The notes under the pieces were generated by a model. That model was not told the origin of the DNA, ran no database searches, and saw only the letters and a program-made list of their open reading frames with translations. The position numbers were made by a program, and so were the translations under genes. From NCBI GenBank assembly GCA_018221165.1, contig JAAOYD010000033.1, positions 1 through 41,779 on the forward strand: a stretch of DNA of 41,779 bases. Reading direction: 5' to 3'. This document shows positions 10,438 to 41,779 of this stretch, piece after piece (within the stretch, counting starts at the first letter, position 1; each line of letters begins with the position of its first letter). This stretch comes from Candidatus Woesearchaeota archaeon. GTDB taxonomy: Archaea > Nanobdellota > Nanobdellia > Woesearchaeales > UBA525.

Positions 10438-11682
10438 GTGAGGACGCTGAAGGTACTTATGCTAGGGTGGGAGTTTCCGCCCTATTTTGCGGGAGGGGTC
10501 GGCACAGTCTGCCATGCATTGACACAAGCATTGTCAAAGCGCAACGTAGACGTCACCTACATCATGCCGTCCGGACCGCGCAACGTCCACGCCGATTTCG
10601 TGAACCTTCTCGTCGCTGACAATATGATTGCAGATGGTCGCATCAAGATTGCAAAAATTGACAGCCTCCTGGGAGCCTATGAAGGTTGCGACGACTACCG
10701 CCACCAATACGAACGCATCCTCCGTGAGACCAATGGCAAGAGCGGCAAGCTCTACGGCCACAACCTGCTCGCGGAGATCGAGCGCTTCGCGGAGAAAGTG
10801 AAGATGATTGTGAAGGAACTGGGAATCGAGTTCGACGTCATCCATGCCCATGACTGGACTACCTTTCCAGCGGCCGTCGCCCTGAAAAAAGCGACCGGCA
10901 AGCCGCTTCTCGTCCACGTCCACATCACCGAGTTTGACAAGAGCGGCGGTGACCACGCCGACCCGCGCATCTACGCCATCGAACAGATGGGTATGCAAGC
11001 AGCTGACCGTGTTATTACCGTGAGCAATCTCATGAAGAACCGTTGTGTCAACCAGTATTTCATTGACGAGCGAAAGGTGCGCGTCGTGTACAACGCTGTT
11101 GAGTTCAACAAGCTTCCAGCACTCCCAGAACGTTTCGAGATTAAAGCGCAAGACAAGATCGTACTCTTCCTCGGCCGCATCACACTCCAAAAAGGGCCGG
11201 ATTATTTCATCGAAGCGGCACGCAAAGTGCTCGATGTGGACCCGAATGTCAAGTTCGTCATGGCAGGATCTGGTGATATGCTGCCACGGATGATTGAACG
11301 TTCTGCAGCCATGGGCATCGGCAACAAGGTCATTTTCCCAGGATTTGTCGGCCGCGAAGAAGGCGACCGGCTCTACCGCATGGCCGATGTGTTCGTCATG
11401 CCAAGCGTCAGCGAACCATTTGGACTCGTCCCATTAGAAGCAATGTACCAAGGCACACCCGCAATCATCAGCAGACAGAGCGGTGTCAGTGAAGTGCTGC
11501 AGCACGCGCTGAAGGTTGACTTCTGGGATGTGGATGACATCGCGAACAAGATTCTCGCAGCATTGAGCTACAGCACGCTTCACAAACAACTTCGCCATGA
11601 AGGCAGCATCGAAGTCCAGGGGTTCAACTGGGATTCGGTGGCGACCGAAGTGGAACAACTATATCACGAGGTAGGGGGATAA
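10438..11682 (+). CDS. Glycogen synthase-like glycosyltransferase (GT-B fold, GT4/GT5 type, archaeal GlgA-like)
   Basis: N-terminal KVLMLGWEFPPYFAGGVGTV and C-terminal EPFGLVPLEAMYQGTPAIIS. GTG start at 10438, with an alternative ATG at 10459. Confidence 0.8.
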   Translation: MRTLKVLMLGWEFPPYFAGGVGTVCHALTQALSKRNVDVTYIMPSGPRNVHADFVNLLVADNMIADGRIKIAKIDSLLGAYEGCDDYRHQYERILRETNGKSGKLYGHNLLAEIERFAEKVKMIVKELGIEFDVIHAHDWTTFPAAVALKKATGKPLLVHVHITEFDKSGGDHADPRIYAIEQMGMQAADRVITVSNLMKNRCVNQYFIDERKVRVVYNAVEFNKLPALPERFEIKAQDKIVLFLGRITLQKGPDYFIEAARKVLDVDPNVKFVMAGSGDMLPRMIERSAAMGIGNKVIFPGFVGREEGDRLYRMADVFVMPSVSEPFGLVPLEAMYQGTPAIISRQSGVSEVLQHALKVDFWDVDDIANKILAALSYSTLHKQLRHEGSIEVQGFNWDSVATEVEQLYHEVGG

Positions 11683-19909: not shown

Positions 19910-21475
19910 CTAGAAATCTCCCATGCTTTTCTGACCTTTCCTTTTCCCTGTTTTCACAGCAACTTTCCCCATATCTTGCCCGACTTGCTTCTTCACGTTG
20001 AGGGCAACAGCCTTACCGAGGAGTTGCGAGAGTGAAGTGTAGTCAATCTTCTTCACGTCCTCCAGCGTCTTAATGCGAGCGTTGTACATCTTCCTTGCTC
20101 GCACCCGGCCAATGCCTCGAAGCTTCAGCAACGGCAACAGTTCCGCTTTCGCGCCATGCTTCAACCGCAGCCGCATCTTCGCCAAGGGCGTCCTGAACAT
20201 CTGGTAATTAAGGATGCGCGCTAGTTCCTCGGTAGCGTATACCAACCAGTCTGCACGTTCCAATTTCGACCGTACTTCACCGGGTGCGATGCCGAGTTTC
20301 TCGAGGAGCATGTCCTCACCGACTTCATCCACCCAATCTTGGAAGAACAACGCAGTTTTCAAAGTCATGAGAAACTCGTCGTATTCCTCAGAATACTGCA
20401 CTGGTTCCAACGCGAGCAATTCTGAAGAATAGGGGTTCGTTTGTTCCATAATCTCATCAAGTTCGCGGACGCGTGGACGCAGCAACGGCCGTAGTTCTAA
20501 ACAGCTGCTAATCATATGCAAAATAGCAAAGTCATGCATGCCTTTCTCCGTCGCCCGTTTCAAGCAGGTAATCAAGAAATGAGCAGTATAAGGATCCAAA
20601 TACAGTTCCGCTATGCGTTTCCCGACGAGCGTCGCCTCGAGCTTGCCGTCGCGTACCTCATTCGCTGCAATGAACTCATCAGTGTTGCTCGCGACTTTCA
20701 GGAATTCCCATTCGTCGAGCTTGGCAACCATAGCATCCAAAATACTGTTGAGTTTGTGTGTGTCGCCGTATTGCTTGGCGTAGAAGGTCTTGCTGAAGAA
20801 CTCATAGAGGCCTTCGTGGGTAGTAATGAACTCTGCGGCGATGAGACTCAAAACATACGTCCGTAGTACTGGTTCAACAGCGAGCTTCGAATAAATCTCT
20901 TCTGGTTCACCATTGATGTACATCTCAGTGCGCGCTTCTTTCTGGTCTTTTGTCTCGGCGAGGATAATCGCTTCTCCCCATTTCTCCATGCCAGGACGAC
21001 CAGCTCGGCCAGCCATCTGGTGGTATTCGAGGACAGGAATATCAACCATGCCTCTACCACTGAAGCGTTTCAAGTCTCTAATGATGACGCGGAAGGCAGG
21101 CATGTCGAGGCCCATGGCTAAGGTGGGCGTGCAGCAGATGATCTTGACAATTCCTTTCCTAAAATTCTCTTCTATCAATGCCCGCTGTTTTGAATGCAGT
21201 CCTGCGTGGTGAAAGGCTGTACCTTTCTGCAAACAGCGAGCGAGTCGCTTGCATTGCTTGGTCGGGTTCGGCAGGGTCTTCAAGGCCTTCTCAGCGAGGT
21301 TCAGCAAGTCGGCGCTCTGATTCTTCACTTTCCCAGCTACTCGCTCAGCCTGCGACTCAGCACCACGTTTCGTGCTGCAGAACACCAGGGCTTGCTTGTT
21401 CTTGCCAAGCGTGTCGAGACAGATGTTGATGACCGCGTCGTTACTCGGAGCGTTAATCTCTACTACCTTGCCCAT
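19910..21475 (-). CDS. Hel308/Ski2-like helicase, C-terminal portion only (RecA2, winged-helix, ratchet and HhH domains)
   Basis: Begins at the RecA2 domain (QALVFCSTKRGAE). Motifs HHAGL, TPTLAMGLDMPA and QMAGRAGRPG (motif VI) are present, plus a C-terminal helix-hairpin-helix (LKLRGIGRVRARKMYNA). Walker A, DExH and SAT motifs are absent. Confidence 0.85.
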   Translation of the reverse strand: MGKVVEINAPSNDAVINICLDTLGKNKQALVFCSTKRGAESQAERVAGKVKNQSADLLNLAEKALKTLPNPTKQCKRLARCLQKGTAFHHAGLHSKQRALIEENFRKGIVKIICCTPTLAMGLDMPAFRVIIRDLKRFSGRGMVDIPVLEYHQMAGRAGRPGMEKWGEAIILAETKDQKEARTEMYINGEPEEIYSKLAVEPVLRTYVLSLIAAEFITTHEGLYEFFSKTFYAKQYGDTHKLNSILDAMVAKLDEWEFLKVASNTDEFIAANEVRDGKLEATLVGKRIAELYLDPYTAHFLITCLKRATEKGMHDFAILHMISSCLELRPLLRPRVRELDEIMEQTNPYSSELLALEPVQYSEEYDEFLMTLKTALFFQDWVDEVGEDMLLEKLGIAPGEVRSKLERADWLVYATEELARILNYQMFRTPLAKMRLRLKHGAKAELLPLLKLRGIGRVRARKMYNARIKTLEDVKKIDYTSLSQLLGKAVALNVKKQVGQDMGKVAVKTGKRKGQKSMGDF

Positions 21476-21613: not shown

Positions 21614-21688
21614 GCCTCTGTAGCTTAGTCTGGTTCGAGCGGTCGGCTGTTAACCGACAGGTCCCCGGTTCAAATCCGGGCGGAGGCG
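21614..21688 (+). tRNA. tRNA-Asn (anticodon GTT)
   Basis: Folded by hand. Acceptor GCCTCTG/CGGAGGC (one G-U pair), anticodon arm GTCGG-CTGTTAA-CCGAC, T arm CCCGG-TTCAAAT-CCGGG, discriminator G, no encoded CCA. Confidence 0.9.
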
Positions 21689-22556: not shown

Positions 22557-22916
22557 CTATTTCAGGAACTTCACACCTTTCATCCCCTTAAAGGCTTGGT
22601 CGCCGGTGACAAAAGGAATCTTTTGCTCTTGGGCAAAGGTATACCCTAAAGCATCAGCATAGGAAAGGTTCTTCGCCTTCATCTCTCGTCGAAATTGCAT
22701 TGCTTCAGGAATAAGTGCTTTCGGCAACGAGGTAGCAATAGTAGATAACTGCATGTGAAAATGATTGGCAGTCTTTTTGTTGTAGAGCCTAAGAAGATGA
22801 TAATAGAGTTCTGCAAGCTGGAAGTCAAGGGTTATGATATCATCAGTAAGTAGGGGCGCTTCTCCTTGGACCAACCGGATAAGTGCATAGGTATCGAGAA
22901 AGTCCATCAGTCCCAC
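22557..22916 (-). CDS. vapC: PIN-domain toxin VapC
   Basis: N-terminal LDTYALI acidic motif, C-terminal FVTGDQAF. 119 aa. It overlaps the upstream antitoxin gene by 10 nt. Confidence 0.85.
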   Translation of the reverse strand: MGLMDFLDTYALIRLVQGEAPLLTDDIITLDFQLAELYYHLLRLYNKKTANHFHMQLSTIATSLPKALIPEAMQFRREMKAKNLSYADALGYTFAQEQKIPFVTGDQAFKGMKGVKFLK

Positions 22917-37305: not shown

Positions 37306-38490
37306 ATGAAGAAATTGTTCAGTATTTTGATTATCGCCATGTTCGTGATGAGCATGGTACCACTGGCATTCGCTGAGAACGAGAGCGAAGACGCAGACCC
37401 AAGTGAAGAAGCTCCGCCGATGCCGCCCGAGAGGGATCGCGAGGAGATGCAGAAACGCATCCAAGCGCGAAATGAAGAAATGAAGGAACACGCACAGCAG
37501 TTCCGAGAAAGCGTCAAGGAACGAAATGCGCAGTTCAGAGAGAACGTGAAAGAGCGCAACGAACAGTTCCGAGAAAACGTCAAGGACCGCAACGAACAAT
37601 TCAGAGAGAACGTCAAGGCACACATCGAACAGGCTCGGGAACGTAACGAGATGGCTAAGGAAAAGTACGAGCAGGCTCGTGAACGCTACAAGGAAGCCCA
37701 AGGTAAGGTGAACGAGGCTCGTGAGAAGTGGCAAGACTGTGAAGGTGACGAGAATGAAGCCTGCACAGCAGCACGCGAGAAGATTCGCGGCAACGCCAAG
37801 CCTTTCCTCGGCAACAGCGCCGACATGATTCTCCAGTCTTTAGAGCGAGTGTATGCACAAGTAGCTGGAAACGAGAATATGGATCCTGAGCGCCAGGAAG
37901 AGATTCTTGACGAGCTCGAAGAACAGATGGCTGAAGTTGAAGCTGCTAAGGCTGAAACTGAAGCTCTCGATGACAATAGCACCGACGACGAGATTAGAGA
38001 CGCTGCTGAAGGTGTCAGGAACTCATGGCAACACACCAAGGCGAAGATGAAGCGTGCCGCAGCCCATCACGCCTATGCTAGGCTTGGTAACATCATCGAG
38101 AAGCTTGAACATCTCGGAGAACGCACCGAGAATGCTATCGAAAAGCTCGACGCGAATGGCAAGGATGTGAGCAAAGCAAAAGAACTCCACAGCGAGTATC
38201 TCCGTCTTCTTGCTGAATCCCGTAGCGAATGGGAACTCGCCAAGCAAGTCTGGGAAGAACAGAAGGAAGCTGATGAAGTCGATGCTCAGGACTCAACTGC
38301 CCGTGAGCACTTCCAGAAGGCTCGTGAACTCGCGAAAGAAGCCAGAAGCAAACTTCGTGAAGTCGTGCGGGCCATCAAGGCCGCACACGGCGGCGATCTC
38401 CCTCCAGTGACTGAGGTGGAGCCAGAAGAAGAGGAAGACGACGACAGCGAGACTGGCGGCAACAAAACCGACAGTAACGAGACTGCCTAA
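37306..38490 (+). CDS. Secreted charged coiled-coil protein with 11-aa tandem repeats
   Basis: Signal-like MKKLFSILIIAMFVMSMVPLAFA, then E/K/R-rich heptad-like sequence and an acidic tail. gaggtg lies 9 nt upstream of the ATG. Confidence 0.6.
   Translation: MKKLFSILIIAMFVMSMVPLAFAENESEDADPSEEAPPMPPERDREEMQKRIQARNEEMKEHAQQFRESVKERNAQFRENVKERNEQFRENVKDRNEQFRENVKAHIEQARERNEMAKEKYEQARERYKEAQGKVNEAREKWQDCEGDENEACTAAREKIRGNAKPFLGNSADMILQSLERVYAQVAGNENMDPERQEEILDELEEQMAEVEAAKAETEALDDNSTDDEIRDAAEGVRNSWQHTKAKMKRAAAHHAYARLGNIIEKLEHLGERTENAIEKLDANGKDVSKAKELHSEYLRLLAESRSEWELAKQVWEEQKEADEVDAQDSTAREHFQKARELAKEARSKLREVVRAIKAAHGGDLPPVTEVEPEEEEDDDSETGGNKTDSNETA
37498..37629 (+). repeat. Four tandem 33-nt repeats inside the coiled-coil gene
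   Basis: cagttccgagaaagcgtcaaggaacgaaatgcg and three imperfect copies encode (Q F R E N/S V K E/D R N A/E)x4. Confidence 0.8.
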
Positions 38491-38555: not shown

Positions 38556-38813
38556 GTGTATACTATGAGAATACAGCTACTACTCACTATAACCGCCCTC
38601 GCACTGCTCTTGGTGGCATGCGGTGGAAAAGAGCTCGCGCCAGAACCAGAACCAATGCCCGAGCCCCCATCCGAAGTGCCATTAGCAGCAGATACTATCG
38701 ACGAGGAAACCCTAACTGAAATTGATGGTCTTGTGACGGAGCTCGACGAGCTGGATGCAGAACTGGATTTCAGCGATTTGGACGCTCTCGACGAGGAGCT
38801 TGATTTCAGCTAA
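38556..38813 (+). CDS. Small acidic lipoprotein (hypothetical)
   Basis: Lipobox-like LLLVACGG, then a D/E/L-rich sequence with ELDxxDLDALDEELDFS repeats. Confidence 0.45.
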   Translation: MYTMRIQLLLTITALALLLVACGGKELAPEPEPMPEPPSEVPLAADTIDEETLTEIDGLVTELDELDAELDFSDLDALDEELDFS

Positions 38814-38944
38814 AGGGATAAACTATTTAAACACCTGATTTCCACTAAATCATTGTCGTGTGTTAAGGCATTGTTGCTCTTTTTTTCTTATTCTTTTCAA
38901 TCCCTAGCTAGAAAGCTGTAGAATAAACGTGTTCTGAGGGGGAA

Positions 38945-39445
38945 TCAATCGTTCACAACCACATACATCATCGTAAAGAATTTCCTCGCATTCTTCACAC
39001 TCTCTTCGGCAGGAAGTTTATTGGCTTGCGACAATTTTCGATACGTGAATTTTCCTCGTTTTCCTTTTTCTTCCTTGAAGATATTGAGTAGTGTTTTTGC
39101 TTTCATTTTGAGGTCATCATATATCGCGAGGAGTTCCTTGTCGAGCACACCTGTCTCGATGAACCAAGAGAAGCGTTCATAGGTCTGCTCGTGTTCTCGT
39201 GGAGCAGTAATCTTGATTCCTTTCGAGAGTAAGTAGGCTTTCGCTGCGTAGAAGATGGAGAAATAGGATGCGCTGATCGCGTTGCTATAGAAGGTTTGCT
39301 GTTCATCTAATTCGAGAGTTCGTTTCATTCCCTCTTCTTCTGAGAGAAGAACAAGTGCATGTGCGAGGAGCGATTCATGCCTCGCCCGCCCAATATACTT
39401 CGCGACGACCCCATCCTCGTCGATAGGCTTTCTTAAGGATTTCAT
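38945..39445 (-). CDS. HEPN-domain protein (partner of the upstream nucleotidyltransferase)
   Basis: Helical ~167 aa from MKSLRKP, with a HEPN-like helix pattern (AISASYFSIFYAAKAYLLSKGI) and pairing with the MNT gene. The start is uncertain: it overlaps the MNT 3' end by 71 nt. The longer ORF-track version is rejected. Confidence 0.6.
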   Translation of the reverse strand: MKSLRKPIDEDGVVAKYIGRARHESLLAHALVLLSEEEGMKRTLELDEQQTFYSNAISASYFSIFYAAKAYLLSKGIKITAPREHEQTYERFSWFIETGVLDKELLAIYDDLKMKAKTLLNIFKEEKGKRGKFTYRKLSQANKLPAEESVKNARKFFTMMYVVVND

Positions 39446-40019
39446 AATACAACGTACAGTTGTAGAGAAGTTTATGTTTCTTTGTGATCTGTTTCCCCAG
39501 ATTTTCCTCTTTATTGACGAGCATTTCGACGAAGTCGGAAAACGTGATGTAATGTTCGTCAATCTGACGAAGATGATGGAGTTTGATGGAATTGAGAGAC
39601 GATGCGATAGCTTTCTCAGTTTCTGGTTTATCGATGAGGAAACAGATATCAATATCCGAATCGGGAGTTTGCGTTCCGTTCGCGAAGCTGCCGAAGAGGA
39701 TAAGTCCAAAGTTCTTCACCGGAACCTCTTTCACAAGCTCTCGAAGAAGACGCTGCACTTCCTTGTGGAGCGGTTCGTTCGCTTCAATATAGAGAAGGTG
39801 TTCAATGAGCTGCGGAGTGTCGAGGTCAAGCGTGTAGAAGTTGCTGTTTGCCTTCCGCTCCTCGATAAGAAAGCTTTTCTTGACGAGCTTCTTCAGGACG
39901 TTGAACACCCAGGGCTTGCTCTTTTTTCCCGAGAGCCTCATCACATCCCTGATGGCGAGCTCTCTGAATGGCTGTGCTTTAAAGGTTGCAAGCACTTGAA
40001 GTTCGTCAGGAGTTAGCAT
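39375..40019 (-). CDS. wHTH-fused minimal nucleotidyltransferase (MNT, Pol-beta superfamily)
   Basis: LILFGSFANGTQTPDSDIDICFLID is the GSxxxGx(n)SDID NTase motif. The N-terminal ~70 aa are winged-helix-like. Confidence 0.8.
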   Translation of the reverse strand: MLTPDELQVLATFKAQPFRELAIRDVMRLSGKKSKPWVFNVLKKLVKKSFLIEERKANSNFYTLDLDTPQLIEHLLYIEANEPLHKEVQRLLRELVKEVPVKNFGLILFGSFANGTQTPDSDIDICFLIDKPETEKAIASSLNSIKLHHLRQIDEHYITFSDFVEMLVNKEENLGKQITKKHKLLYNCTLYYEILKKAYRRGWGRREVYWAGEA

Positions 40020-40104
40020 ATTACTAAATTAGATAATGAACGTTATTAATAAAAGTAACGATTTTGTGACGAGAAAGAGAAGATATTTGTCCCAATGTGC
40101 TGGC

Positions 40105-40191
40105 CTATTCCGACAGACGCGCCGTTGTTGTTGAGGTTGTTGTCGAAGTTGACACCGTTGTTGTTGTCGTTCGCGACACCCAACCGGCCGC
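40105..40191 (-). repeat. DGR template repeat (TR), intergenic and AAC-rich
   Basis: Gap-free 87-nt match to 40453-40539. All 17 mismatches fall at coding-strand adenines of this copy. On the minus strand it reads GCG AAC GAC AAC AAC AAC GGT GTC AAC TTC GAC AAC AAC CTC AAC AAC AAC GGC. Confidence 0.8.
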
Positions 40192-40384
40192 CCAGGTAGC
40201 CCCTCCGCCTTTTTTTCTTTCCACCACCCATTCAGTCATGCGAAGCACGAGTAGTCTGGGTTGAATTTTATGACAGCAAGCTGCCGTAACGGAAGGACGT
40301 GTAGGTCCAGCAGTCCGCATCAATAAGCGGCATAACTGGGACAATGAGAAAAGAAAGTATTGATGTTTAAATGCCTATTGGTGC

Positions 40385-41371
40385 TTATTCGACTCGACGT
40401 TCAAGATTGCTGTCGCGAAGACCTTTAAAAAACGCGTCGAGCGCCTCCGGCGCTACCCCGACAGACGCGCCGTCGTTGCCGAGGCCGCTGACGAAGTAGA
40501 CACCGAGGCTGCTGCCGCCCGCGACACCCAACCGGCCGCTGTCCGGCAACTGGTACCCATCATGCCAAGAACCGTACTGTGTGAAGCCGAACTTCTTGGC
40601 TCGATTCAGCAAAGCGTGAGCGGGCTTGACACCGCCTGTGGCAATACTCAAATCAGGATTAACACGACCATCAACATCTCGCTGAGAAGATTGATCTTCA
40701 GTTTCAGGATTATGATCAATGAGGTGGTATCCTGACGGGCTGTTCTCCAATGCTTCCACAGCAGGACGCACGACAGCATATGCGAGATCGCCATCAAGAA
40801 CGAAACCCTGACTCGCATCCTCAAAATCCCCAACAGAGGTAAAGAAACGATTGCCGAGAACACAGTCACCAACGACACCTTCGTAGAGCAAGCGGTTCAG
40901 AGCATTCCGCTCCTTCCGATTGCTCCTATTAAACTGCAGGGCACCGCGAACAAGCGCGCCATCCTGCACTGCTGCACGAATGCGCTCGTGATCATCAGAG
41001 AAATACGGCGCATTCACGAGGTCAACAACCATGTGAGCATTCCTGACACCATACACGCCTTTTGTGTCTTTCAGGACAAGACGCTCATGGTTCATGTCAT
41101 CCCAACTATTCCATTCAGGGCTCTCTTGCCAGCTCGTGACTTCTTCTGGAACAAGACTTCGCCCATGAAGCAGGAGGAATGAAGCAACACGAGCTAAATC
41201 AGCCTCTTGAACTGCCTGAATGGAATCCGCAACACCCGTAATTCTTTGCCGATACATGCGCACGCCGCGAAGCTGAGCGCCAGTTGGTGGAGTGAAAAAA
41301 GGCCGAATCTTTTCAGGAACGCTCTGTGCGTCCGTTTGCTGTCGATCCAAGAGGAGGTATGTGTCTGCCAT
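40385..41371 (-). CDS. DGR variable (target) protein, with the C-terminal variable region probably in a C-type-lectin-like fold
   Basis: 328-aa ORF. The VR encodes GRLGVAGGSSLGVYFVSGLGNDGASVGVA about 22 aa from the C-terminus. The N-terminal 250 aa are unassigned and I see no signal peptide. Confidence 0.7.
   Translation of the reverse strand: MADTYLLLDRQQTDAQSVPEKIRPFFTPPTGAQLRGVRMYRQRITGVADSIQAVQEADLARVASFLLLHGRSLVPEEVTSWQESPEWNSWDDMNHERLVLKDTKGVYGVRNAHMVVDLVNAPYFSDDHERIRAAVQDGALVRGALQFNRSNRKERNALNRLLYEGVVGDCVLGNRFFTSVGDFEDASQGFVLDGDLAYAVVRPAVEALENSPSGYHLIDHNPETEDQSSQRDVDGRVNPDLSIATGGVKPAHALLNRAKKFGFTQYGSWHDGYQLPDSGRLGVAGGSSLGVYFVSGLGNDGASVGVAPEALDAFFKGLRDSNLERRVE
40440..40454 (-). promoter_or_regulatory. 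GC-rich hairpin at the 3' boundary of VR (candidate DGR target-recognition element)
   Basis: On the coding strand, AGCGCC-GGA-GGCGCT gives a 6-bp stem and 3-nt loop. It can be extended by gtcg/cgac (40436-40462). No equivalent is present next to TR. Confidence 0.5.
40453..40539 (-). repeat. DGR variable repeat (VR) inside CDS 40385-41371
   Basis: Counterpart of TR. It differs only where TR has A on the coding strand (17 of 25 A positions); all 62 non-A positions are identical. Confidence 0.8.
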
Positions 41372-41459
41372 GCAATATCACCATGAATAGTCTTTATCAG
41401 CGAGAGCGAATACAGAATTACTTATAAAGATTTTTATATTTATTCACTTCAAAGTAGTA

Positions 41460-41779
41460 TTATCCCTTCACAACCCCAATCGGGGTCAATTTCACAACTT
41501 TCTTCGCGATGCCAGAATCATGGCACACCTGAATAACCTGGTCAACGTCTTTGTAGGCGCCAGGCGCTTCCTCAGTGACGCCTTTCCGGGAAGCGGACTT
41601 GATGCTGATGTCCTTGTCAGCGAGATCTTTGGTGATGCCTTCCTGGTCGAACAGCTTGTTGGCTTTGAAGCGCGACATCAAACGACCAGCGCCGTGAGCG
41701 CAGCTGCCGAAGCTCTCCTTCATCGCTGTTTCTGTTCCATGCAGAATAAAGCTGTGCGTGCCCATGCTGCCAGGAATCA
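41460..41779 (-). CDS. rtcB: RNA ligase RtcB, C-terminal part (partial, continues beyond the window end)
   Basis: IPGSMGTHSFIL and GSCAHGAGR motifs. The frame is open to the window edge. Confidence 0.9.
   Translation of the reverse strand, partial: IPGSMGTHSFILHGTETAMKESFGSCAHGAGRLMSRFKANKLFDQEGITKDLADKDISIKSASRKGVTEEAPGAYKDVDQVIQVCHDSGIAKKVVKLTPIGVVKG

Follow-up and report, generated by a model that had tools for sequence, protein, structure and literature searches.

The contig JAAOYD010000033.1 of a Candidatus Woesearchaeota archaeon (assembly GCA_018221165.1) carries at one end (38945–41779) the target gene and the template repeat (TR) of a diversity-generating retroelement (DGR), flanked by the 3′ end of rtcB and by a pair of genes for a minimal nucleotidyltransferase (MNT) and a HEPN-domain protein. 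The window analyzed here is the entire contig, 41,779 nt, so the DNA past the truncated end of rtcB falls outside it. The locus is a DGR part-set, a target with its own template RNA but without the enzyme: a TR, a variable repeat (VR), a target, and a putative cis element are present, and no reverse transcriptase (RT) is found in cis. A previous reading of this DNA, made from its sequence alone (the sequence-only reading), had drawn attention to the missing RT. The elements of the DGR are the following.

40385–41371, minus strand: DGR target gene, an open reading frame (ORF) of 328 aa with the VR near the C-terminus; homologs at 33–37% identity
40453–40539, minus strand: VR, differing from the TR at 17 of 87 positions, all at TR adenines
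40440–40454, minus strand: GC-rich hairpin AGCGCC-GGA-GGCGCT, 6 bp, directly after the VR, conserved in sequence
40365–40373, minus strand: TATA-like box (ATTTAAAC); the predicted 5′ end of the template RNA is about 25 nt further downstream
40087–40344, minus strand: predicted complete DGR template RNA, ~258 nt (5′ closing arm, RT-16 domain, TR, short linker, 3′ closing arm)
40335–40344, minus strand: 5′ arm of the closing helix (UUGUCCCAGU), from minimum free energy (MFE) folds and RNAalifold
40191–40339, minus strand: match to the RT-16 RNA (RF03019, 56.9 bits)
40105–40191, minus strand: TR, rich in AAC codons, ending in GGAATAG where the VR has GGGGTAG
40087–40096, minus strand: 3′ arm of the closing helix (AUUGGGACAA), from MFE folds and RNAalifold

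The TR/VR Pair and the Target Gene

A repeat search of the window returns an 87-nt direct repeat with 80% identity, formed by the TR and the VR. On the minus (coding) strand the two copies have 17 mismatches, all at adenines of the TR (17 of its 25), and none of the 62 non-A positions differs. By our own arithmetic, random mismatches would all fall on A with a probability of about (25/87)^17, i.e., ~6e-10. The variable positions fall in AAC codons, and the VR, read in frame, corresponds to residues 278–307 of the target ORF. The repeat is a bona fide DGR pair, as the sequence-only reading had recognized from the purely A-specific differences. Its further argument, that this purity reflects recent homing, is a fair one, but it merely bounds the time to a span without neutral change in 87 nt. 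The search for further copies of the TR, or for other VRs matching it, which that reading had proposed, was made within the window: a gapped pattern of TR/VR anchors matches the TR and VR sites alone, with 0 matches expected in shuffled sequences. In its degenerate form the pattern is unmatched in the genome, metagenome, and viral collections searched, among which the source contig itself is not included, and exact look-ups of the target and MNT proteins likewise return no record.

The target protein has no match in Pfam. A profile of the target family has weak similarity over the VR region (E = 0.01) with AvpA (5ioo), a variable protein described by Handa et al. 2016 (PMC5006420), and a C-type lectin fold is weakly indicated. 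The AlphaFold model of the target, made with six sequences, has a mean pLDDT of 35 and is unusable.

The sequences at the end of the repeats and just after them are strongly conserved in the target family, whose other loci are designated here by numbers (L001 and following). All six TRs of the family end in GGAATAG. In L016 the cognate VR has GGAGTAG at this place, whereas it has GGGGTAG in the five other pairs. After the VR, GTAGCGCCGGAGGC (the codons for V-A-P-E-A, window 40440–40458) is nucleotide-identical, synonymous sites included, in 11 of the 11 family loci examined, despite target proteins that are ~35% identical among these loci. The full GTAGCGCCGGAGGCGCT is kept in 10 of the 11, with L007 differing by a single base (GGCACT; ACT instead of GCT). 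The post-VR hairpin is probably a cis element for the recognition of the target. The conservation of the peptide motif SVGVAPEAL may reflect the hairpin, in DNA or in RNA, instead of a constraint on the protein.

The Template RNA

In the ~190-nt spacer between the target and the TR the sequence-only reading had found no Avd-sized ORF. This holds, but the spacer is not empty, as it contains a structured RNA: it matches Rfam family RF03019 (RT-16 RNA) over the full length of the model (1–158), with a score of 56.9 bits for a gathering score of 50. RT-16 is also found directly 5′ of the TR in L004, L016, L019, and L021, and in L022 with 46.8 bits. Because RT-16 is contiguous with the TR, it is part of the DGR template RNA, of which it constitutes the 5′ domain.

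The block between target and TR has the same composition in the window and in the five other TR loci: the TATA box, UUGUCCCAGC, CUACACG, AUAAAAU, UGAAGGGGUGGUG, and GGGCUA just before the TR. The sequence blocks of RT-16 are nearly invariant across loci, and GCUGGGAC lies a few nucleotides 3′ of the TR in all TR-bearing loci. In single-sequence MFE folds, the 5′ GUCCCAGC pairs with the 3′ GCUGGGAC in six of six loci, which encloses RT-16 and TR in one predicted RNA of ~260–300 nt. RNAalifold gives 48 pairs, 13 of them with compensatory changes, and the compensated pairs are kept in the window RNA (for example, CCUUCCG/CGGAGGG for CUUUCGC/GUGAAAG in others). The TATA-like box ATTTAAAC, which had been noticed earlier as atttaaac at about 40366–40373, aligns with TTTATATA-type boxes in five other TR-bearing loci and is the putative promoter of the template RNA. 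No bacterial promoter or terminator came out of the scans made for them; in an archaeon this is to be expected and has no significance.

Search for RT and Avd

The absence of RT and Avd in cis, reported by the sequence-only reading from ORF translations, is borne out by three types of searches for the RT and by Pfam for Avd. The best tblastn hit of the family RT in the window has E = 1.1 and lies in frame inside the MNT gene, i.e., it is noise. Neither RVT_1 nor Avd appears when Pfam is run on every long ORF and on 38800–40420 translated in six frames. A hidden Markov model (HMM) made from 80 RTs of the clade found in the related loci (see below), and run unfiltered (--max) on every six-frame segment of at least 15 aa, gives nothing in the window at E <= 10, neither an RT nor a remnant of one. 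The same HMM recovers its positive controls, with 2.6e-275 for an intact RT and 5e-33 for the 94 aa of RT left in another locus. The 41.8-kb contig is without RT or RT scrap. This includes the interval 40020–40104 and the MNT region, where RT pseudogene remnants had been considered as a sign of simple decay and where six-frame Pfam scans and the clade HMM reveal none.

Related Loci

The target family is small, and its loci with organism titles are all from Woesearchaeota. Full cassettes are found in L004, L019, and L021, in the order target, RT-16/TR RNA, RT, with the RT starting 13–60 nt past the closing helix. The clade RT has ~550 aa and contains RVT_1 and a C-terminal HTH_40 domain. It is abundant in DPANN, with 6871 proteins at E <= 1e-40, the best 120 listed having 54–62% identity. 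None of these three RT-bearing relatives has Avd, the same interval being taken by the RT-16 RNA. Therefore, the lack of Avd in the window is normal for the clade, and is a clade trait instead of a defect of this locus.

Three loci, namely the window, L016, and L022, have a target and a template RNA without RT; in L022, the 10 kb downstream contain none. Both L016 and L022 keep the whole RNA, have only mismatches at A (9/9 and 11/11, respectively), and show no RT remnant. Among the three RT-less pairs there are 37 TR/VR differences, all at A, and 0 at non-A positions (~180 by our count), to be compared with 2 non-A differences in the RT-bearing L004. In L016, a contig of 2.4 kb, the TR is followed on the opposite strand (824–2399) by a HEPN-like ORF that overlaps the TR by its 3′ end, then by a gene for an MNT with a winged helix-turn-helix (wHTH-MNT), and then by a tyrosine recombinase (Phage_integrase, 4.9e-12). 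The 3′ end of this template RNA gene may have received a small integrative element. The gene after the TR of L022 codes for a DUF5698/DUF2179 membrane protein and not for an MNT.

Other targets are VR-only (L015/L023 and L017/L018/L020/L025). An RT lies next to the TR of L019 (710–795), and four other records (L017, L018, L020, and L025) have VRs that match this TR, with 20 of 20 mismatches at A. These records represent about three independent contigs, as L020/L025 appear to be one scaffold, and possibly a single genomic locus sampled in different assemblies, as L017, L018, and L020/L025 have an identical VR. The L019 TR also matches the VRs of L015 and L023, which likewise appear to be one scaffold, with 14 of 15 mismatches at A. 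The contigs with these remote VRs come from Rifle-type groundwater Woesearchaeota and have no TR or RT of their own. Judging from these matches, action at a distance is normal in this target family. L007 and L008 are unclassed: neither TR nor RT is seen in them, and their contigs end 130–250 nt past the target.

L001 provides an example of a decayed DGR. Its target is intact, the C-terminal 85–94 aa of the RT are left (11092–11403; tblastn E = 3e-22, HMM 5e-33), and neither a TR nor an RT-16 RNA is found. A 640-aa protein with a Pol-beta nucleotidyltransferase domain abuts the RT remnant on the opposite strand. The decayed locus of L001 is also represented by L002, L003, L009, and L010.

A Syntenic Locus without the Module

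The neighborhood of the module in the window comprises the following.

41460–41779, minus strand: truncated 3′ end of rtcB, the contig stopping within the gene; Pfam RtcB C-terminus (41460–41777) 2.4e-39; 73% identical to the rtcB of L026
~40066–41457 (borders approximate), minus strand: extra DNA relative to the empty site of L026, ~1.39 kb, with the target and its putative promoter, the template RNA and its putative promoter, and nothing else
39375–40019, minus strand: wHTH-MNT, 214 aa, NTP_transf_2 8e-12, Polbeta 1e-9; a resident neighbor and not a DGR part
38945–39445, minus strand: HEPN-domain partner, 166 aa, PF05168 3.6e-5 (24.3 bits for a cut-off of 22); a resident neighbor

The Pfam matches agree with the sequence-only reading both in placing the 3′ end of rtcB upstream of the target and in placing a wHTH-nucleotidyltransferase and a HEPN protein directly downstream of the TR. 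That reading had also suggested comparing the synteny in related genomes, which can be done with L026, a locus on a 91-kb contig of another archaeon that carries the closest homolog of the window MNT. The two are collinear for rtcB (73% identity), MNT (71%), HEPN (62–67%), a coiled-coil protein (40%), and a DUF7343 protein (50%), in the same order. Only 54 nt separate the stop of rtcB from the start of the MNT gene in L026, a locus devoid of target, RT-16, TR, and RT. The homology between the window and L026 stops just past the rtcB stop codon and resumes at AATCGTTAC (window 40055–40063), ~45 nt before the MNT start. Since rtcB is directly followed by MNT/HEPN in L026, the DGR module is the extra piece, and MNT/HEPN a resident neighbor of rtcB. 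The RT-less unit of target and RNA behaved as a discrete block, under insertion or loss alike, and an ancestral RT between the RNA and the MNT would require two separate precise deletions. For the borders of the module, a target-site duplication or an att site was considered and rejected, as the weak similarity between the promoters of the target and the MNT is the archaeal TATA/BRE (B recognition element) consensus common to the target promoters of the family.

In the 8.5 kb past rtcB, L026 has LAGLIDADG, archease, diphthamide synthase, RIO1, TopoVI-B, and housekeeping genes, and no RT. Free-standing LAGLIDADG_3 homing-endonuclease genes are found near rtcB/archease in L026 (7490–8113) and near arginyl-tRNA synthetase in L027 (9771–10496). 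If the genome of the window shares this arrangement, variation there might contribute to the assembly break inside rtcB.

The MNT/HEPN Pair

The MNT has the motif GSx(9-11)DxD (GSFANGTQTPDSDID, read in translation) and matches the NCBIfam model MntA_antitoxin at 5e-10, with a score of 39.1 that is below the cut-off of 60. The HEPN gene overlaps the MNT gene by 71 nt, and the HEPN orthologs align from residue 1. The HEPN partners of the window, L026, L027, and L028 conserve K-R-G-x-F-T-Y (R-x4-Y) and a separate P-x-E-H, and a clear Rx4-6H RNase motif is not seen in their alignment. The HEPN gene of L026 appears to be frameshifted, with the tblastn match split over two frames. There are ~80 homologs of the wHTH-MNT at 40–50% identity in DPANN metagenomes. 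Those that were looked at have unrelated surroundings and are each accompanied by a HEPN-like partner that overlaps them; in one case, two pairs stand in tandem.

Because the module lies between rtcB and an MNT/HEPN pair that already adjoined rtcB, this pair holds the position usual for the RT by accident of module placement. MNT/HEPN follows the TR in two of the three RT-less loci, which is above the expectation from the density of such modules in the fetched loci, in a tiny sample. We take this adjacency as unexplained and do not read a meaning into it, as toxin–antitoxin pairs and mobile pieces gather in variable regions. A common origin of the MNT/HEPN pairs of the window and L016 was rejected: the MNTs have 27% identity (47–71% for other homologs), the pair is inverted, and the HEPN partners are unalignable. 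A compositional sign of recent transfer of MNT/HEPN was also discarded, there being only a mild and uninformative dip in GC (0.43–0.47 for 0.50).

Toxin–antitoxin modules of several kinds cluster around these DGR loci. For example, PIN-domain (VapC-like) genes are present in the window (22557–22916), in L001 (9287–9863), and in L004 (1253–1820), those of L001 and L004 having small upstream partners and lying close to the DGR targets.

Other Genes of the Contig

According to Pfam, the other genes of the contig are those of an ordinary archaeal chromosome, including ABCE1, a family-B polymerase, ribosomal protein S15, glycogen synthase, MetK, CopA, and RtcB. In a 521-aa ORF at 19910–21475, the match to an archaeal Hel308-type helicase is limited to the C-terminal half of the latter (Helicase_C, domain 4, HHH_5), and the N-terminal motor lobe is missing; a tRNA gene lies just upstream (21614–21688). 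A 585-aa gene with the same domain set is present in L004. The acidic coiled-coil protein found in the collinear block (37306–38490) is a secreted protein of 394 aa that contains three tandem 33-nt (11-aa) repeats (37481–37612), and its 40% identity with the L026 ortholog compares with 50–73% for the flanking genes.

Comparison with Known Systems

The DGRs of Nanoarchaeota (DUSEL4) include several cassettes per genome, among them RT-less "partial DGRs" with adenine-directed variation (PMC4372165). These resemble the window locus in being RT-less and from DPANN, the window target being weakly AvpA-like over the VR region. However, they were published as target, VR, and cis elements only, whereas the window locus adds its own TR and a full template RNA, and the syntenic empty site shows its module to be a discrete extra piece.

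The locus shares with the canonical cassette of the Bordetella phage BPP-1 (mtd-avd-TR-brt) the A-specific TR/VR differences, the VR at the 3′ end of the target, the GC-rich hairpin after the VR, and the structured RNA around the TR. The asymmetry between GGGGTAG (VR) and GGAATAG (TR) is comparable to that between the BPP-1 initiation of mutagenic homing (IMH) sequence and IMH*. The window locus differs in having neither RT in cis nor Avd, and in that the structured RNA is mainly 5′ of the TR (RT-16) and not in a 3′ spacer. The C-terminal HTH_40 of the related clade RTs is another difference from the canonical BPP-1 cassette.

RT-16 is one of the 19 motifs found near RT genes by Weinberg et al. 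2017, without a specific role being given; only RT-10 was tied there to a DGR, that of BPP-1 (PMC5737381). The match of the window to RF03019 is full-length and above the gathering score but has no neighboring RT gene, whereas the RT adjoins RT-16 in L004, L019, and L021.

In Bordetella, avd, TR, and brt function when expressed in trans from a plasmid, and nonadjacent (remote) DGR targets have been described by Wu et al. 2018 (PMC5758913). The RT then acts far from its own gene, as in the case of the L019 TR and the VRs that match it on separate contigs. However, the remote targets described so far use a TR next to the RT, whereas the window locus has its own TR. No description of an RT-less locus with its own TR and template RNA was found in the DGR literature searched.

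The MNT/HEPN pair is similar to the type VII MntA/HepT pairs, as both associate a Pol-beta minimal nucleotidyltransferase with a GSx10DxD motif and an overlapping HEPN gene. It differs by its N-terminal winged helix, by having R-x4-Y and a separate E-H with no clear Rx4-6H, and by an MntA score below the cut-off.

Discussion

The reading favored here, to which we give about an even chance, sees in this region a DGR module that is non-autonomous, its RNA being used by a clade RT whose gene would lie at some other place in the genome. The components of the module are an AvpA-like target, which includes the VR and the hairpin after it, and then a template RNA of ~258 nt with a separate putative promoter, the RT itself being absent. 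The template RNA would be transcribed from its own TATA promoter, and a clade RT (RVT_1 and HTH_40) from another locus of the same genome would bind its RT-16 scaffold. The RT would then copy the TR with errors at adenines, and the resulting cDNA would replace the VR, guided by the GGGGTAG end and the hairpin. What is established is the anatomy of the locus, the lack of RT on this contig, a template RNA that is conserved and shows covariation, the synteny, and the match of one family TR to VRs on other contigs. The existence of an RT in this genome and the current activity of the module are only proposals, which may hold.

An RT in trans is, with the same balanced confidence, our best explanation for the RT-less module, because three independent RT-less loci keep the RNA intact to the last helix without an RT fragment, because all 37 differences in the RT-less pairs are at A while the RT-bearing L004 has two at other bases, and because the template RNA has its own promoter-like element. 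The remote VRs matching the L019 TR and the trans expression of the Bordetella components also speak for it. The use of one RT by several RNAs is plausible, because both the clade RT and the RT-16 scaffold are highly conserved. Several points weigh against this explanation. The scope of the RT search is the 41.8-kb contig, and the RT of this genome is still hypothetical. Each of the three RT-less contigs breaks off within the target or no more than 0.5 kb upstream of its start, which leaves room for an upstream RT, and L016, with its 2.4 kb, ends in the integrase gene, past which an RT could lie beyond the inserted element. The RT-16 scores of the window (56.9) and L022 (46.8) are the lowest of the set, those of the RT-bearing loci being 63.5–79.3. 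The 0 of 62 non-A mismatches bounds the time since the last homing and does not demonstrate present activity. Finally, with two genomes compared, an insertion in the lineage of the window is not separable from a precise loss in that of L026.

In the main rival reading, the module would be a recently orphaned fossil, served by no RT in the cell, with the pure A pattern as a trace of the last homing. Paul et al. 2015 raised the same alternative, fossil or remote, for the RT-less partial DGRs of Nanoarchaeota (PMC4372165), and we regard it as unlikely here while giving it real weight. It accounts for the lack of an RT on 41.8 kb and for the low RT-16 scores of the window and L022, and decay does occur in the family, as L001 has lost its TR and RNA and keeps an intact target with 85–94 aa of the RT. 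Yet L001 also illustrates what one would expect from random deletion, namely that it cuts the RNA or leaves pieces of RT, and the three RT-less loci have the whole RNA up to the 3′ helix with no RT scrap. Neither the lack of non-A mismatches in their pairs (~180 positions, for 2 such mismatches in the RT-bearing L004) nor the compensatory pairs retained in the window RNA fits well with a fossil. An ordinary but spread-out DGR, with the RT just past the contig end and upstream of rtcB, is improbable. The gene order of DGRs varies (PMC5758913), the contig does end inside rtcB, and the remaining two contigs without RT are likewise cut within the target or shortly upstream of it, but the 8.5 kb past rtcB in L026 contain no RT, all RT-bearing members of the family have it directly 3′ of the RNA, and rtcB is a housekeeping gene that is in no cassette seen here.

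The remaining explanations give a role to MNT/HEPN. The sequence-only reading had envisaged that a recent insertion of this cassette displaced or destroyed the RT, which the comparison with L026 refutes by reversing the direction: there, the MNT/HEPN orthologs come directly after rtcB, and then the downstream genes known from the window, with no DGR part. Even though the MNT starts 68 nt past the RNA, where an RT would start, and L016 likewise has MNT/HEPN and an integrase right after the TR, we consider such a displacement very improbable, as the six-frame searches reveal no trace of an RT within MNT/HEPN or next to it and the base composition has no sharp break. Still more improbable is a functional link between the TR and the Pol-beta-fold MNT, offered earlier as speculation, by which the MNT would replace the RT or process the TR RNA. 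This idea could draw on the wHTH-MNT/HEPN being the next gene pair after the TR in two of the three RT-less loci, on the 640-aa Pol-beta nucleotidyltransferase abutting the RT remnant of L001, and on the MNT genes within 7 kb of the targets in L008 and L020. However, it finds no support in the distribution of this multi-copy family: an MNT/HEPN of the window type occupies the same place in L026, which has no DGR, and close homologs (47–49% identity) are in unrelated contexts, sometimes as tandem pairs. Furthermore, the pair in L016 is inverted, only 27% identical, and has an unalignable HEPN partner, L022 has no MNT, and minimal nucleotidyltransferases of this family are known as adenylyltransferase antitoxins, not as templated polymerases (NCBIfam MntA). 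A nucleotidyltransferase acting in place of the RT need not be considered further.

DGRs are usually found RT-first and treated as one cassette, with one RT and one TR. The RT-in-trans reading of the window locus leads to a broader proposal, which we make more tentatively than that reading itself: in DPANN, a target with its RT-16/TR RNA gene may be a self-contained non-autonomous unit, placeable at new sites without an RT and diversified by a clade RT located elsewhere, so that one RT would serve several TRs and not only several VRs. Apart from this proposal, RT-16, an Rfam motif so far without a role, gains one here, as the 5′ domain of an archaeal DGR template RNA. If the proposal is true, RT-first pipelines systematically miss such units, and DGR censuses undercount diversified genes. 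One RT could then drive several independent templates, and the scaffold of the template RNA would be the real unit of RT recognition.

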